A stretch of DNA of 64,000 nt from Paecilomyces variotii (taxonomy: Eukaryota), in NCBI GenBank assembly GCA_004022145.1, contig RCNU01000014.1, one strand, 5' to 3'. The position numbers and the translations under genes were made by a program. Every line of letters begins with the position of its first letter. Position 1 is the stretch's first letter. The notes below the pieces were generated by a model. That model searched no databases and was not told the DNA's origin. It was given only the letters and a program-made list of their open reading frames with translations. Positions 1 to 9,699 of this stretch are shown here, piece by piece.

Positions 1-2354
1 CGCCCTTATCGGGGTGCAGGGTAGCCTTTTCCTCATCCGCCTCCGTCGACACGGTAGGCTGGGACTTCGCGGCAGGCCTTGCCTGCTTCCTGGGACTCCT
101 TGCACGGCGAGTGTTGGCTTGCTGTTGCGTATTCTCAGGCTGTGGAATAGTCCAGGCAGCATTCTTCAACTGCTCGGCCCAAACATCTGCCGAAAACTTG
201 GCTTCTGCGAACGGTGTAGGCGCTTGTTTCGATGCGGATGGAGCACGCGAGGTGCCTTGGCTTGAGGAACCGTTCTTCGATTGCGATGAAGCAGTAGACC
301 TGCCAGGCGTTCGACCACGACCGGGTGATCCTCGTCCACGATTCGCTGCATCCTTAGCTGACGGGGCAAAGAAGTCCGCAGCCCCTTCGAAAGTGTTGCG
401 CCAGTGATCCGCCGAAAAAGTAGTGTGTAGATTCTCGTGGCTCTTGGATTCTCTGTTCATCGTGGCTTTCGAGGTAGTCGATCCTTGGAAGCTATGAGAC
501 GGGTCAGCATCATATCCTTGGGTTCTCGATATCGACTTAATTAATGGGTCAGGAAGTTGGCGAAGCGAGGCGCGAATCGCTGCCGCTGATGGAGCTGCGC
601 TTTTGCCGTCGTCTGTTACCCTGATCCGCTTGGGGGATGTGGCCGGAACCATCACACTGGAAGGGTAGGCCCAATACGGCGGCTGTTTGCGCGGGCCTTT
701 GGGAGCGGCCTTTGGGGAACAGAATCCCCATTTGCGGGACCAAGAAAGGGTAGATGATTCAGGGGCGGCGTCATACTTATTAGAGGGTTCCTTTGATTCT
801 CCGGTAACATCACGGGTCTCGCGTTTCTCTGGACGTTGAGCGTTATGCGATTCGGTGGTCGTAGCTGAGGCATGGAAGCCATTCGGGAATGCGGTGCTAT
901 CTGAGGCATGCCCTTCATAATAATTGTCAGTATTTTCATCCATATATCCGTGATGGCTCCGTGGCCTGGGTCCGTCGAAACGCCTGGGAGGGTGTAGGTG
1001 ATCCGGAGAATCATAATCGGCCGGCCAAACTGAGGGATTCTCACCAGCTCCTGAGTTCCAGTCCTTGTAGAAGTCGGAAAATTTCTGGTTCGGGCGTAGT
1101 CTACTCTTAGGGACGGCCCGTGGCTTGAAAGTAGGCTGGTCTTCATCTTCGTCAAGATCATCCTCGTCCTCGTCTAGGTCACTCGAAGTAGCCGATGAAG
1201 AAAAGGCTCGATCCCGGTTCTTCAGTTGTGGGCTCGCGCTACGATGCCGTCCAGATTTGCTATGCGCAGGGCTGGGAGGATTCGTCCTCGAGTGAGGTCT
1301 CGGGCTGCTAGGGGAGTCCCTTACGGTAGAGGACCGGCCGAGTCCAGAACTTGAGAAGTAAGTCCTTTCGCCTCCGCTGGTTGCGTACCGCGTGCTGAGC
1401 CTTTCAAATCCCGGGATAGTGAACTCTTCTGGTGCAGTGGTCTTCTTTGCGGTGGGAGCTGGTGCCGGTTCGTAAAACGCACGTTCCGGTCTCGGGACAT
1501 TGGTGTAGGCGGAAGTGTTGGCTGCTGGCGGTTCATCGCCGCCTGGTGTCCCTGGAGCAAAGCCCTGCTTCCTCCTGGTGGATGGGGTCCGCGGAGGTCC
1601 AGTAGCAGGCTGCGTCGGCGGAGGCTGCTTCTCATATGCCGTCTTGAAGTATTCGTATGCCGACCTCGGCCTCGCGGATTGTCCGGTTGTTGTCCCCGTT
1701 GGCGTTCCTCTGGGAGCTGGATATGATTTACCGGTCCGAGGATCAAAGTTAGCCCAGCCAGGCGTTGCGTTATTCTTCATCTCCTGGAAACCACGGAAAG
1801 CATCTGCCCGAGTTTGAGGCTCATCCCGCGTCTTCTCCCATGGCTGCTGTTGTGCTGCTCGTGCATATCTGGCAAAGCTCTGCGCACTTGCTGAAGGATG
1901 GGCTTGGTAAGATTGTCGCTGAGAATAGCCTGGTCTAGAAGTCTGGGCCCTTGAGGTAGGAGGTGGTGGCGGAGGAGCATACGGTTGCGACGCGGGTTTT
2001 GGTGTGGTCGGTTTCTTCGTGGCAGTCGCCGCTTTCGCTGCACCATACGTCCTTCCATAGCCAGCTCGAAGCCTATCCGTATCATACCTCAGACGCAGTT
2101 GTGGATCAATAAGAATCTCATGAGCTGCTTGTATCGCTTGAAACTTTGCGTTGAATTCGGCTTCCCTTCCCGGATTTCTGTCGGGATGGTACTTCAAAGC
2201 TGTGTCATTCCACCAGTTAGTCACTGTAGACAGGTCTTGAAGAACTTATACTCTCACCAAGCTTCCTAAATTGCTTCTTGATTTCATCCGTATCGGCGCT
2301 CGGGGTCAGACCCAAGTCCGCATAGTAATCCCGACGTACGTCTGCTTTCACCAT
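1..2354 (-). CDS. DnaJ/J-domain protein with long low-complexity C-terminal region; 3' end lies beyond the window
   Basis: ATG 2354, exon 1 MVKADVRRDYYADLGLTPSADTDEIKKQFRKL; intron 2257-2200 (GTGAG..CTAAC..CAG); then ALKYHPDRNPGREAEFNAKFQAIQAAHEILIDPQLRLRYD with the HPD motif. The frame appears open to position 1, which explains its absence from the ORF track. Confidence 0.9.
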
Positions 2355-4345: not shown

Positions 4346-7300
4346 TTAGTTCCCTCCATTCGAGGGCCCTGCACCGTTGCCGCCAAAAAAGAAGCCATCG
4401 AAGAGGTCGTAGCCAGTACCCTCGCTCCAGTCGTGCTGGAAATCAACAGCAAGACCAAAGCCAAGGTCAAGACCTGGTCCAGCTCCCGCCCCAAAGGACG
4501 GCATAGACGGATACTCTTGGGTACCGTCTTGTCTTGTCTCAAGATTCATCGCCCCACCGGGAGCGAAGTCAAGGAAATCCAGCCCGGGGTCAACAAAGCC
4601 TTCCTGCTCGGGAGCTTGCGATTGACCGTAGTTCTGTTGTGCACCTCTTGACGAAGGACTCTGAGGTGAGTTGTAGTAATATTGCTGCTGCTGCTGTTGC
4701 TGTTGCTGCTGGGGATTTGGCCCATCATACGTATTGTCGTACGACTGCATATACTGTGAATTCCGATGGTACCGGCCTTGTGGATTTTCTCGTTGGAGGT
4801 TTGCCATTGGTTGGCGACCGCCATATCCAGATCCATCATAGGACTGGAGACGTTGTCGTTTACCGCTGGGAGGGGTCATACCCTCAGCGAAGAGATCACC
4901 GAGATTCATATCGAATCTGGGTTGAGGCCGCGCTTGCCTGGACTGGGTCTGCCGGGGTGGCATCTGATATTCGGAGCCACTCTTTCGAGATCCGGGACTT
5001 TCAAAATAAGTCTGCGGTGTGCGTGAAGCGGGAGCACCGAGAGGCGTCCCGGAGTTGTCGCTGCCAAAGCCCGTAGTTGACAGGCACATCTGAACGGTTG
5101 CCTTGCTCATCCTTTCAAAAGCATCCCGACAGGCTTCTGCTGGTGGACACTTCTCCATCAGATCGCCCAAAACCGAGGTGGCAGAAAGAACGGTAAAATC
5201 AACATCATCAAGCGTCTAGAAGCGTAAGCCAAGTTCCACAAACGAGGCACTATGTGCGACTTACCAGGCGACTTCGGACCACAGGTGAGTGCCATATTGC
5301 ATATAGGAACGATATACCTGGGGCTTGTCAGCTCGCCTACGTTACAACCATCGAAGACGGCGATGTCTTACCTGCCATGAACAGGTGATGTGTAGCCAAG
5401 TAAGTATAATTCACTAGGTGGACACGGTGCAGTTGTCGATATATTCTCAAGACCTTCTGTCCTGCTTCCGCAACCTTGAGGTAAATGTCGTCTTCGTCCT
5501 CGCTGTCTTCAACATTCGAGAACGATGGACTCGAAACATCATCTGCCGGTGTTAGAGCTCCAACCAACGGGGCAGGCACCGTCAAGCTCTGTCTGTACAA
5601 CATGACGATTGCTTGGAAGTAATTCAGCTCGAAAAATTCCACAGAGAATTGCACGCCCGTTTCCTGACGGGTTGGCGCAGAGTCTCTCCATTCAGCAAGT
5701 CGGCGATGCACGTCTTTTCGCCAAGATCGGAAGGAGTCGAAGTTCTGTAGGAAAGGTGATGGGAGTTTGGTGTGCATGAAAGCATTTCGACTGTTCTTCC
5801 CCCCTTGTCTCGCAAGTCGCGCCTGTTGGTACTGCAAGACTTGTTGGATTTCCGACTGGAGAAGGCGTAGTTTGAGATAGTGATGAGCGACCACTTTGTA
5901 ACTGGGTGCATCTTCTGGGGGTGTTAGGAAACCAGCCTTGGTAATATACTTGTCATCCAACAAGGACGGAAATTCCGTCGTGATGACCTGGTCTGTTATA
6001 CCGAACGGCCGGCCCACACAGGTGCTTACGAGACGGTCGAAACTGTAAACACACCACCAAAGGCGCCGACGAAAGTCTCGAACCCATTCTCTCCGTCCTC
6101 GTTCACGAGGATCTATGCTTGGCTTCTGCTTGTCATCAGTACCGATCGCTAGGCGTGGCACACCCTCCTCTCCAATAGAGTCGATGCCTGTGCCATCCTC
6201 GTAATGCAGACCCAAGTCGACGGCCAATCTGACAGCAACTCCAACAATGTACCAGAGACCCGGGGGAACGGGTCGAAGGAGAGCAAAACCGGCCAGAAGG
6301 AGGACCGCCTGCAGTTCTTCAAGACCGGCACCAAAGCCATTGCTCGAGGTAGGAGAACTGAGAAACGCTTCCAGATGGACACTCGCAGCGGCATGGTACT
6401 CCTCCGGTTGATACTGATGGCTCGAATGTTTCCGTCTGGCTGATGGTTCTGTTGATGGCCGATCACCAGCCTTATTTTCATCGTCTGCATTTGACGCCTT
6501 TCCTTCGTAGATTATGCCGGCACCGATGGCGAAAACGATGTTGAGTACATACAGATCCCTGGAAGACGAGTCCTTTGCGTCACTGGAATAGACTCGATCC
6601 ATGAGTTCCACGAAATCAGGGCGATGGAGGATCGGCATCTGAGGGTTGGCGTGTTCAAAGTACAGCTCCACCAGCTTGTTGGCAAGCTCTCGATCGGGAA
6701 ACTCTGCACATTTCACCGTTGGCTTCGTCTGCAAGCCAAAGTAAGAGTCTCGCATCGTGCTCGCACCGCCTCCTGTGACAGTCTGGGGCAAACGATCACC
6801 CGACCGAGTAGATCCGCGATCCGACCCATTTCCTGATACGGAACTCTTGACCGCTGCGAAGACCACCCTGGCGAAAGAGATGCCGGATGTAGAGCCCAGA
6901 TAGCGAGGGTCCGAGGTCCCTTGAACGGACACCATTCCAATATTCGATACCAAGTTATCCAGCCTCTCTTCGGTTTTCTTTTCCCGACTAGCGCTTCCAT
7001 CCTCGCCGTCTGTGCCACCTTTCCTTGCCCCGGATCCTTCTATCAAGCTACTATCTCTGTCCTTCTCTTTCTTTATTGTCGCAGAACTTACACCAGACAT
7101 GGGAGAGTCCTCCGCAACAGAATGGGCTTGTGCAGTATCCGCCACGCCCTCTCCTCCAGTTGTCTCGTCGCCTTCAAAAGCGGCTGCTTCCTTGTACCCA
7201 ATTCCATTGTCGGTCAACACTTTTTCGAGATATGCGACGCGAGCCTCCAAAAAGTATACATAGCTGCGGGGTATCTCCCGTTTCGTGATTGGATCGTAGC

Positions 7301-7655
7301 CCACACAGCGGACTCCAGCTTTCTCGCAGGACTGGCAGCGGGGAAGACGTTGGTCGCATCGGTTTTTGCGCAGCCGGCAGCGATTGCAGGCGGAGACGTT
7401 GCGGAACGACGAGGTTGAGTTACCCGCAGCAAGATGTGCGCTGGACATGGCCGCAGAGGATTGTGTCGTTGTTAGTGGAGAATGAGCGGCCTGTCCATGG
7501 GAGTAATGGTGCTGAGCACCTGGATCATTGCGCGGCGGGCCCAGTAACGACTGTGACGATGAGCGGGGAGGGTTGTCTGAAGAATCAAAGGAAGCGCGAA
7601 GCCTCTTTGTGCCGGATGGACTCGTAGATGCAGGCGGAACAGCGGGATTCAACAT
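4346..7655 (-). CDS. uaY: Zn(II)2Cys6 positive regulator of purine utilisation (UaY/Ppr1 family)
   Basis: SSFRNVSACNRCRLRKNRCDQRLPRCQSCEKAGVRCVGYDPITKREIPRSYVYFLE zinc cluster as in UaY; fungal-specific TF domain (RRRLWWCVYSFDR); introns 5371-5318 and 5264-5216 join the 772-aa and 274-aa ORFs in frame; acidic/aromatic C-terminus. Confidence 0.92.
4682..4711 (-). repeat. CAG/CAA trinucleotide tract encoding poly-Gln in UaY
   Basis: (ctg/ttg)n on the + strand; PQQQQQQQQQQYYY in the translation. Confidence 0.9.
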
Positions 7656-9699
7656 AACGAGACTTATGCGATGAGGCGGAGATCATGTACGACCATTGCT
7701 TTACCGCAGAGCCGTACAAATGTGCCAGGAAGTATACGGATTCAACAAGCTCCGGGCAGATCCTGTCCTCATGTTCGTTTCAACAGCTCGTGAAGGGGCG
7801 CTGCGTCGCTGGTAAGTTACCCTGCCTTGAAGGATCGTCCTGCGCTTCAACTGGCGATGGTGACCGCGCAAAACCCTCGGAAATCGGTGTTCGAGATAGA
7901 GGTCTGTAGTCGTCGTCGATGCCAGTAGCTTACTTAACCGCCCAGCCTCGACCTTTGAGACGACTTTGAAGATTAGCCCGACCAGGCTTCCAGGCGCAAT
8001 ATTGTCATACACGTTGTGGCCTGGAGGATAAAGTATTTATTAATCGGAGGCGCTTTGTTCGAGATCCGCAGAACCAAGAGTCGCCAGTCAGCGGGAGCCC
8101 CGAGAAAGTCCACGATCGAAGATCGAGATAGGGTTCTAGTGGAGTCAAGCTCACCGCGCCGGCTCGAAGCGCTTAACGGGTTGATACGGCCGATCGGGCT
8201 GATGGAGAGTGGACAGCAGCTGAAGATGATGTTGAACGCAATGGATGATCGCGCTGGAATATCTGCTGGCGGCGACACGATTCACGATCCAGAGCTGTTC
8301 TTTTCCAAGTTCTTCCACACTTCTTCCTTCGCCGGGATGGCCGAGAAAAGACGGATTCCGGGGGCGCTACGTGTGACAATACGATACACAAGGTGATACC
8401 GTGTGAAAACCGATCAACGGCCTCGTAAAACCCAACATTCCGATATCATTTGCCAGAGATAAGGATGGGACTGCTCTATCTAGTCTGGCGTGTTTCCACT
8501 CTGATACCGTTACTGAAGCTGCCTTTACAGGCACTATACCATACTTACGGTCCGCAGCTGTTACGATTATTATTATTTTTATTTCAACCGCAGCATTTGT
8601 GCTTCGACAGATCTTCTTGTTCTCTTCTCAGTCTTCTGTCGTGACATTGGAATCATCATAAACATCTGGCCTGGATCATTTCTTACAGCTTGCCATTGCT
8701 CACAAGTTGGACTCCGTTCGAACTCCCCTCACTACAAACTGTCCTCCGCGACTGGCGCGCATTTCTCGAGCCGGGGAGAACTCCGCCAAACTCTGTTGAT
8801 CAGGGGCCCACGGACTAGATCGTTCTTAAGGAAGTCTCTTAATAAACCGTTTAAGCTTGGAAACCCGTAACGGACTCATGATATGAGAATACTCATGTTG
8901 AGAGTGATCGATATCCAGGCACGGGCCTTCTTCTGTCTTCGGACGAGCTTCTCTTGCGTCACTCCTGACGGAATTTTCTGGCGTAGTTATGGCTGATTCC
9001 ACTTTCTTACTACCTAGATGGAGGTCTTGACAGACTGACGGAGTCGATATATGAGAATTCCTGTCAAGACATCGTCGATAAGCACATGTTCTCTTGCTGA
9101 CGGTCTCCGAGTCTTGACCTAGATGGATCAAGGGAACTTGACAAAAAGCATTACGGCGGGGATAAGACAATCACAGCCTAATTCAACTTCGACTGTTGGA
9201 CGTCATAACTGCTCTGGCTATGACAGATGAGTGAACTATACAAGTGCACACTGAACAGTAACTATCTGTCTTGTCGCGTTGTGAACACACTTTTATGGAT
9301 TCATCAAGCAAAAGGCAAGCTGCCAAAAGAATCGAGCAATCTGTCCTTATACTTGAAAGTTGAGCGTGACTAGGTACCCCGCCTGTTCATTCAAGAATTG
9401 GATATGTCAGCAGAGATAATAACTAGACTGCATCCCCACGCTAGCTTAACAATCAGCAGCCAGTCTAGACTTTGTTATGGAGATTGTTCCTGGATTCTTT
9501 CTGTGGACACCTATCAATATTTCTGGTACATCATACAGATCACCAATTCTGTAACATTGATACAATGAATTTGACAGTGAACCCATAATATGCAGCGATT
9601 TATGAAAATGCATTTTCTTATCCGCCTGTTCCCCGCCAGAGTGGGGCATATCTGAGGTCGGATTGAAGGGATTTATCACGATTTTCACACCCCCACGCC

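Follow-up and report, generated by a model that had tools for sequence, protein, structure and literature searches.

Exitrons, or exonic introns, were reportedly defined by Marquez et al. in 2015, in Arabidopsis and human. As a review describes them, they lie inside a coding exon, use their splice sites only in part, contain no stop codon, have a length divisible by three and an exon-like GC content, and encode disordered regions with a short linear motif, so that splicing yields an internally deleted protein (PMC10985678). Here, we analyzed a 64,000-nucleotide (nt) stretch of Paecilomyces variotii DNA (contig RCNU01000014.1, assembly GCA_004022145.1; hereafter ‘the window’), in which positions 1-2354 of the minus strand hold a gene for a J-domain (Hsp40-type) protein. 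We find that two segments of this gene, A' (1044-913) and B (776-492), are probably genuine and conserved in-frame alternative introns, that is, exitrons, in a disordered linker. Like the plant and human exitrons so described, both lie in the interior of a coding exon, carry canonical and partly used signals, are stop-free and a multiple of three in length, have exon-like GC, and fall in a disordered region that has a short linear motif and perhaps a phosphorylation site. They differ in that the host is a filamentous ascomycete, that the major form is not always the retained one, and that they occupy conserved intron positions, plain introns in relatives, instead of being young cryptic introns. 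No fungal exitron is described in the titles and abstracts that we searched, and the exitron review contains no word with ‘fung’ in it (PMC10985678).

Within that literature, the nearest functional parallels among fungi are PTC7 and FES1 from budding yeasts. Saccharomyces PTC7 has an in-frame, translatable intron whose spliced and unspliced mRNAs give two proteins differing by an internal module; its conservation extends across species, with losses in some lineages in which the intron then carries stops (PMC7491326). The PTC7 module is a transmembrane helix with a shown effect on localization, whereas the module in B is a disordered, tryptophan-rich peptide known from RNA contigs and sequence. 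Moreover, there are two segments in one exon here, they are much longer (132 and 285 nt), and they belong to a member of the Pezizomycotina, while PTC7 is a gene of Saccharomycotina. FES1, an Hsp70 nucleotide-exchange factor of budding yeasts, shows conserved intron retention in which the variable part, a nuclear localization signal, decides localization; its retained intron brings the open reading frame (ORF) to a stop after four codons, and an internal poly(A) site is used (PMC7491326). The gene studied here is like FES1 in being an Hsp70 cofactor with retention isoforms, and differs from it in that A' and B are read through in frame.

The intronization model of intron origin is said to be due to Catania and Lynch. 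As outlined by Ryll et al., coding sequence that has splice sites on either side is for a time spliced alternatively and can end up as a plain intron (PMC9612004). An exitron in Thermoascaceae and a plain intron in Penicillium-like fungi would fit this path. Unlike the transient phase of that model, alternative splicing here appears long-lived and constrained, with a polarity that we infer from outgroups that keep the peptide.

The gene starts with an ATG at 2354-2352, and its frame is open from 2245 to the edge of the window, encoding P0001. Its parts are as follows.

2258-2354, minus strand: exon 1, encoding MVKADVRRDYYADLGLTPSADTDEIKKQFRKL plus the first base of the next codon; it matches the N-terminus of P0002 and P0003, and RNA contigs join 2258 to 2199.
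2200-2257, minus strand: intron 1, constitutive, 58 nt, GTGAGA...CTAAC...CAG, GC 43%; joint 2199/2258 in three of four runs.
1045-2199, minus strand: constitutive coding exon with the remaining J domain (including HPD) and the disordered linker upstream of A'; based on the open frame, Pfam PF00226 and the predicted local distance difference test (pLDDT).
913-1044, minus strand: probable exitron A', 132 nt, 44 codons; spliced in run X9, retained in X1, X4 and X8.
777-912, minus strand: constitutive exon between the two segments; covered in all four runs.
492-776, minus strand: probable exitron B, 285 nt, 95 codons; joint 491/777 in X4 and X9, with retained contigs.
650-742, minus strand: conserved peptide core in B, WSRKWGF (742-722)...PPYWAYPSSVM (682-650), then SPKR; based on orthologue conservation.
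1-491, minus strand: constitutive exon downstream of B, running off the window; about 295 more codons follow in P0002.

Public sequencing data supplied the evidence for splicing. At least half of the sampled words of this region are present in 16 public runs, and nine runs with at least part of them are recorded as RNA. We placed Logan contigs from four runs (X1, X4, X8 and X9, from four studies) on positions 1-2600 of the window at 90% likeness, using intron 1 as an internal control for DNA or pre-mRNA. Such assembled contigs show presence and not absence, and carry no information on strand, on polyA tails or on the phasing of A' and B along single molecules; as depth is averaged over the k-mers of short contigs, isoform ratios are rough and rare forms are dropped. 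Intron 1 is joined out (2199/2258, a skip of 58 nt) in X4, X8 and X9, where its depth is zero. Because the bin containing intron 1 has only the depth of its exonic third, these three runs represent spliced mRNA with no detectable DNA or pre-mRNA. X1 is a single 7840-nt contig that keeps intron 1, and is thus DNA-like or unspliced and uninformative on splicing.

An earlier note, made from the DNA letters alone, had proposed segment B at 776-492, and B is excised exactly there. The joint 491/777 (a skip of 285 nt, GT..AG on the gene strand) is found in two of the four runs, X4 and X9, with retained forms alongside. In X4, a B-spliced 60-nt bubble contig (2 x 30 nt) has a depth of 242 and a retained 345-nt contig (462-806) a depth of 109.6; in X9, the corresponding depths are 5.6 and 3.39, and contig 15 stops exactly at 777, the start of the B branch. 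A 988-nt contig of X8 (462-1449) reads through both segments, and contigs retaining B are present in X1, X4, X8 and X9. The joint of A', placed at 911/1044 (cut +1), is found in one of the four runs, X9, in a 475-nt contig with flanks of 135 and 340 nt. Retention of segment A, the other half of the earlier proposal, is borne out by contigs of X4 and X8 in which intron 1 is spliced: in X4, a contig without a break spans 933 to 2199, position 1044 included, and continues across a spliced-out intron 1, so that A' was retained in mature mRNA there. As intron 1 is fully spliced in the same runs, the retention of A' and B (30-148x) does not reflect carry-over of DNA or pre-mRNA. Among the contigs listed, there is no B junction in X8 and no A' junction in X4 or X8. 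By these rough depths, spliced B exceeds retained B in X4 and X9 and only retained B is seen in X8; A' is only retained in X4 and X8 and only spliced in X9. At the level of contigs, not raw reads, both segments lie inside a coding exon, are partly spliced and partly retained, and have lengths divisible by three.

The signals behind these junctions are largely those that the earlier note had listed. GTGAGA (1044-1039), TACTGAC (932-926), CAG (903-901), GTATGA (776-771), TGCTGAC (509-503) and TAG (494-492) are all in place; the ORF listing and the translation both confirm the open minus-strand frame; its two lengths, 144 and 285 nt, are indeed multiples of three; and the B peptide that it read, WSRKWGF..QPPYWAYPSSVM, is encoded at 742-722 and 682-650. 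Segment A needs correction at one end. Its donor at 1044 is used in X9, and its acceptor lies at 913 and not at 901, 12 nt away; accordingly the observed junction rejoins as G|GG and not as G|AT. The acceptor used is AG 914-913, the first AG past the branch site, and the 12 nt at 901-912 (GG CAT GCC TCA G), earlier counted in segment A, are exonic in the observed junction. We rejected an acceptor at 901: no joint to 900 is listed in any of the four runs, contig data in which a minor form is possible. A' is thus bounded by the donor G|GTGAGA, identical to that of intron 1, and a weak AAG acceptor (GAAG|GG), with the branch A of TACTGAC 14 nt from its 3' end. B has the donor AA|GTATGA, the branch TGCTGAC at 509-503 with its branch A 12 nt from the 3' end, and the acceptor CATAG|C.

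Motifs of this kind arise easily in a long reading frame. We applied a donor/branch/first-AG rule to the real 2196-nt ORF and to 500 codon shuffles of it, and obtained 14 candidates against 7.1 +/- 4.1 in the shuffles, which is not significant, and 5 candidates divisible by three against 2.2 +/- 1.8, a count reached by 9.8% of the shuffles. As these counts are within chance, splice-like words alone were not used as evidence, and the reality of the segments rests on RNA and comparative evidence, not on motif statistics. The argument in the earlier note that both segments are stop-free and divisible by three holds in part: inside an open frame it is not independent evidence, though given real introns the chance for both is about 7e-4. 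Base composition sets B apart from the single constitutive intron compared: GC is 57.2% in B, 56-57% in the flanking exon and 43.1% in intron 1, with A' intermediate at 50.8%. GC3, the GC content at third codon positions, is likewise exon-like in B.

Gene models and transcripts of related fungi show both forms. Thirteen of the 15 listed members of the 27-member P. variotii cluster, P0022 and P0031 included, are proteins of 1058-1061 amino acids (aa) that read through A' and B; the other two are ORF fragments. From Thermoascus aurantiacus, P0006 (930 aa, encoded on a 3939-nt Logan contig) is precisely without the A' and B homologues, and it is transcript-derived, as it is also without intron 1. 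At the genomic locus of T. aurantiacus, L002, the homologues of A' and B and a third segment are all open and in frame.

L002 5381-5515: A' homologue, 135 nt; G|GTGAGC, TACTGAC, AAAG|GT.
L002 5661-5954: B homologue, 294 nt; TT|GTATGG, CTGAC, CACAG|C.
L002 4598-4660: third in-frame segment, a 63-nt candidate exitron, G|GTAATT…CTAAT…CAAG|CC; its removal deletes GNSSMPGWSNFDPWTNRTAYQ (21 residues).

The third segment is skipped in P0006 and kept in all other Thermoascus models; at the homologous place of the window (about 1795-1730) the sequence reads AAG AAT, with no GT donor and no joint seen. The annotated models of T. aurantiacus and T. crustaceus keep A' and B, and that of T. thermophilus (P0034) has both removed. 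Among five Histoplasma models, one keeps B and part of A, two drop A only, and two drop both A and B, with a junction residue that fits the same phase (NNM|YG… -> NNI|FGP). The other models in the same alignment, 13 of 13, keep both segments, and those that are named come from Onygenales-type genera. In Rasamsonia-type proteins (P0035 and P0036), the genomic ORF keeps B open with a decayed tryptophan motif (…VSRHKWRH…TGSDPSS…), and the annotated model removes most of B; this form of B may be an intermediate between exitron and plain intron.

The tryptophan-rich peptide of B (WSxKWGF…PPYWAYPSS) is conserved from Eurotiomycetes to Lecanoromycetes. The aligned Onygenales-type models carry the pattern MY[DEG]…(K)WS(D/E)xW(G/P/S)F…P(P)xWA(Y/I)PSS, and the same peptide occurs in metagenome fungi with only 30-36% overall identity. 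A profile of B alone matched 22 representatives at E <= 1e-3 among 1.84 billion. Ten of its matches were looked up; three clusters were named (Toensbergia, Hypocenomyce and Mycoblastus), the two that were checked are Lecanoromycetes, and the Toensbergia cluster presumably is as well. In-frame stops are absent from A' and B in the window and equally in L002, L008, L010, L013 and L014, and the B homologues measure 246 nt in L008 and L010 and 252 nt in L013 and L014. In its first half, B shows 60% identity between P. variotii and T. aurantiacus, level with the 61% of the constitutive linker. The distant loci L008-L023 have no recognizable A' homologue, and we therefore claim deep conservation for B only.

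The splice signals of B are conserved as well, at positions where the encoded residues do not demand it. In the six coding lineages with DNA (the window, L002, L008, L010, L013 and L014), the donor is xx|GTATG(A/G), with tyrosine always encoded by TAT; the acceptor is YAG|C TTY, with serine always encoded by AGC; and a CTGAC, CTAAC or CTGAT word stands 12-18 nt from the end of B. With the codon usage of each ORF, the chance that all tyrosines are TAT and all serines AGY comes to 6.9e-4 when four well-separated lineages are counted and to 2e-5 with all six, which are not fully independent (L013 and L014 are 76% identical, L008 and L010 64%). With the branch codon added, these values become 5e-6 and 1e-8, for a branch position picked post hoc. 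The residue before the tyrosine at the donor varies (K, L, M or V), and its third-base G is constant wherever DNA exists. At the protein level, all 34 B-bearing orthologues start the segment with xY[DEGA], 28 of them with MY, and 30 of the 34 end it with [AT][ND]x4-7[SR]F, or 32 if two Paecilomyces proteins with a 3-residue spacing are included by eye. The remaining two misses, P0148 and P0155 (541 and 721 aa), are perhaps incomplete. As background, the pattern is found twice in the remaining 25,849 residues of the same proteins. In orthologues, then, the length stays divisible by three, the frame remains open and the splice signals persist, and two fungal classes share the B peptide; together with the junctions and the retained forms, this supports the interpretation first put forward in the earlier note, that these are alternatively retained in-frame modules.

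In relatives of Aspergillaceae type, the same two sites hold plain introns. L004, which is 97% identical to the P. canescens model P0099, has at its A site an intron of 134 nt that contains two in-frame stops and shifts the frame, and at its B site an intron of 56 nt; P0099 splices both. Another relative, L005, has an A-site intron of 132 nt with an in-frame TGA and a B-site intron of 53 nt. At L007, the A site holds 126 nt and the B site 66 nt, both short and open. All these loci agree in donor words, in phase, and in the branch and acceptor words of the A site. The introns of L004 and L005 share with A' and B their phases (1 and 2) and donors (G|GTGAG and xx|GTATG), and with A' in particular a CTGAC-type branch, present at the A site of both loci, and an AAAG|G acceptor there. 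Unlike A' and B, they carry stops in the frame, disrupt it, or do both; no conserved peptide is encoded in them, and the annotated models remove them. They are AT-richer in three of four cases (GC 43-45%), the A-site intron of L005 having 58% GC. These homologous introns behave as ordinary introns do. The sites of A' and B are old intron positions, occupied by plain introns in the P. canescens-like locus and in L005. The B peptide is absent from the Aspergillus and Penicillium models.

A number of observations count against the exitron reading of A' and B. The haplotype of X1 carries TGG>TGA at 740, inside B (TGG 742-740). This TGA also accounts for the Logan ORFs P0033 (ending …STLS) and P0032 (starting MNRE), found in 6-7 contigs, and splits the read-through ORF into pieces of 505 and 447 aa. 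Only a B-spliced mRNA can yield the full protein in that lineage, and the protein with B retained is dispensable there. Single-nucleotide polymorphisms (SNPs) number 10 in the 417 nt of the segments and 21 in the 1878 nt of constitutive exon (Fisher p 0.057, underpowered); 6 of the 10 and 6 of the 21 are non-synonymous (p 0.13, likewise not significant and underpowered), leaving 4 synonymous SNPs in the segments and 15 in the constitutive exon, among them the exon-1 SNPs at 2268, 2334 and 2343. Spliced B is deeper than retained B in both junction-bearing runs, and the retained depth of A' in X9 is essentially nil, both of which fit ‘mostly an intron’. The contigs with the B junction have just 30 nt per side, the tool's caution limit. 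The second half of B and A' are only 25% and 39% identical, respectively, between P. variotii and T. aurantiacus. Finally, AlphaFold2 yields no confident structure for B, and B matches no known domain.

Much of this would be expected if A' and B were ordinary introns, inefficiently spliced because of their length (132 and 285 nt, against introns of about 58 nt) and a weak acceptor, with retained mRNAs as by-products and only the spliced protein mattering. The excess of spliced B in X4 and X9, the complete splicing of A' in X9, the natural stop in one haplotype, the higher SNP density and non-synonymous share, the poor conservation of A' and of the second half of B, and the reduction of both sites to plain introns in L004 and L005 all point this way. 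Such introns, however, would have no need of a 95-codon frame that is open in all six B-bearing coding loci with DNA, of a WSxKWGF...PPYWAYPSS motif kept from Eurotiomycetes to Lecanoromycetes, of a first half conserved like the constitutive linker, or of exon-like GC and GC3. Nor do A' and B behave as ordinary constitutive introns in the RNA-derived contigs, where they are retained at exon level in runs in which intron 1 retention is nil. We thus consider this explanation unlikely, and the exitron reading the better account of the locus.

The junctions themselves might instead be artefacts of assembly or reverse transcription, or stem from co-occurring strains with genomic deletions, as X4 is a metatranscriptome with strain mixtures and holds a chimeric joint as well, and as the B junction contigs are only 60 nt long. 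We regard this as very improbable, given exact GT..AG ends at the predicted donors with branch sites 12-14 nt upstream of the acceptors, a B junction in two studies, including X9, which is labelled as a single organism and has both forms, and homologous junctions in another genus (P0006 and the annotated P0034) and in Histoplasma models; none of the named P. variotii models that derive from genomes (13 of the 15 listed) shows a deletion. Least credible of all, and close to negligible in our view, is a plain constitutive exon whose splice-like motifs are unused chance matches. Every named P. variotii model does treat the region as exon, and the motif counts do not stand out from the shuffles, but the junction contigs, the transcript-like P0006 and the signals conserved at synonymous sites are hard to reconcile with such an exon.

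The chimeric contig of X4 joins 302 to 987 on opposite strands, and loose contig ends with the same 8 terminal letters occur at 430 (X4) and 1897 (X8); all of these look like library or assembly artefacts. A spliced X4 contig extends 477 nt beyond position 2600, upstream of the ATG, which points to a long 5' leader or to read-through from a neighbouring transcript. In X9, there is a 3-nt in-frame deletion at 1146, in an acidic DEDEDD tract, and the cluster members of 1058 and 1061 aa suggest a length polymorphism in this tract.

The gene is a single-copy gene of the P. variotii group encoding a fungal J-domain protein of about 1059 aa. Full-length orthologues have 1056-1059 aa (P0002 has 1059). 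The nearest cluster includes models named Paecilomyces variotii and is 98% identical across residues 340-660, where P. lecythidis is 76% identical; the species is placed in the Thermoascaceae, Eurotiales. Pfam DnaJ (PF00226) matches residues 9-72 of P0002 (E 8.8e-22, 77.4 bits against a cut-off of 27.8), and the HPD tripeptide that marks a J-domain protein is visible as KYHPDRNPG. Pfam found no domain besides the J domain in the full-length protein, and none in B. The AlphaFold2 model, for which 37 orthologues were used, is confident in two parts only, the J domain (residues 1-80, helical, pLDDT 80-87) and a C-terminal helical hairpin (about residues 905-971 and 1010-1059); pLDDT is below 50 across residues 84-900, which include both A' and B, neither of which has a confident structure in the full-length model. 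The protein begins with its J domain, continues through about 800 residues of disordered linker and ends in the helical hairpin. A Protein Atlas search with the C-terminal 160 residues gave no usable match, and a PDB sequence search with the B peptide gave one meaningless 19-residue match (E 0.44) and no solved relative. Just upstream of A', residues 390-410 of P0002 (window about 1190-1130) form an island of pLDDT 62-71 with the sequence KPRAVPKSRLRPNQ(K/R)FSDF, which is nearly invariant among orthologues and may be another linear motif. Elsewhere in the window, long open frames on the minus strand at 4346-5215 and 5337-7682 show a Zn2Cys6-type cysteine pattern (CNRCRLRKNRCDQRLPRCQSCEKAGVRC) and probably belong to a neighbouring fungal transcription-factor gene.

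How might the two segments work? Most likely, the spliceosome meets two long introns that are in frame and whose signals are imperfect, in A' because of a weak AAG acceptor and in B because of a length of 285 nt, compared with 58 nt in intron 1. Only part of the transcripts are spliced. Excision deletes 44 (A') and/or 95 (B) residues with the frame kept; otherwise the segments stay in the mature mRNA. As both products are in frame, neither has a premature stop that could trigger nonsense-mediated decay. Both mRNA forms would presumably be translated. Up to four isoforms are possible from the combinations of A' and B, with the J domain and the C-terminal domain constant in all of them. B could act as a module of short linear motifs, WSxKWGF...PPYWAYPSS together with a basic SPKR patch, whose removal or retention alters the partner or the compartment of the co-chaperone; the SPKR or K-R-rich patch after the motif leads us to hypothesize a role in localization. 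A' may be a less constrained 44-residue spacer, and the splicing ratio may shift with strain or condition.

More tentatively, and as a possibility that we rate as slightly less likely than not, B may be an ancient exitron that has existed in two states, spliced or translated, since before the split of Eurotiomycetes and Lecanoromycetes. Selection would then have acted at the same time on the peptide and, at synonymous positions, on the donor, the branch site and the acceptor, B would serve as a regulated switch for a tryptophan-rich docking or localization module, and the short Penicillium-type introns would be its eroded remains. If so, these introns would document a transition from exitron to plain intron.

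The presence of exitrons here would clarify why public gene models of this J-protein disagree among sibling species, the region being exon in P. variotii, T. aurantiacus and T. crustaceus, intron in T. thermophilus, and both in Histoplasma: both the exon and the intron models would be right, and annotations should carry several isoforms. In the literature searched, in-frame translated intron retention in fungi amounts to a few budding-yeast genes (PTC7, and SKI7/HBS1 by alternative 3' sites). What would be new is a pair of exitrons in filamentous ascomycetes that is supported by RNA and, for B, conserved across classes. The gene also comes with two experiments of nature, one being a strain in which a stop interrupts B and the other a family in which the sites have shrunk to plain introns. 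It offers a concrete, datable case for viewing coding sequence, alternative intron and plain intron as stages of one evolutionary path. As the protein is an Hsp70 cofactor of heat-tolerant moulds known from food spoilage and fermentation, a linker module under splicing control would provide a testable route to condition-dependent chaperone targeting in these fungi.

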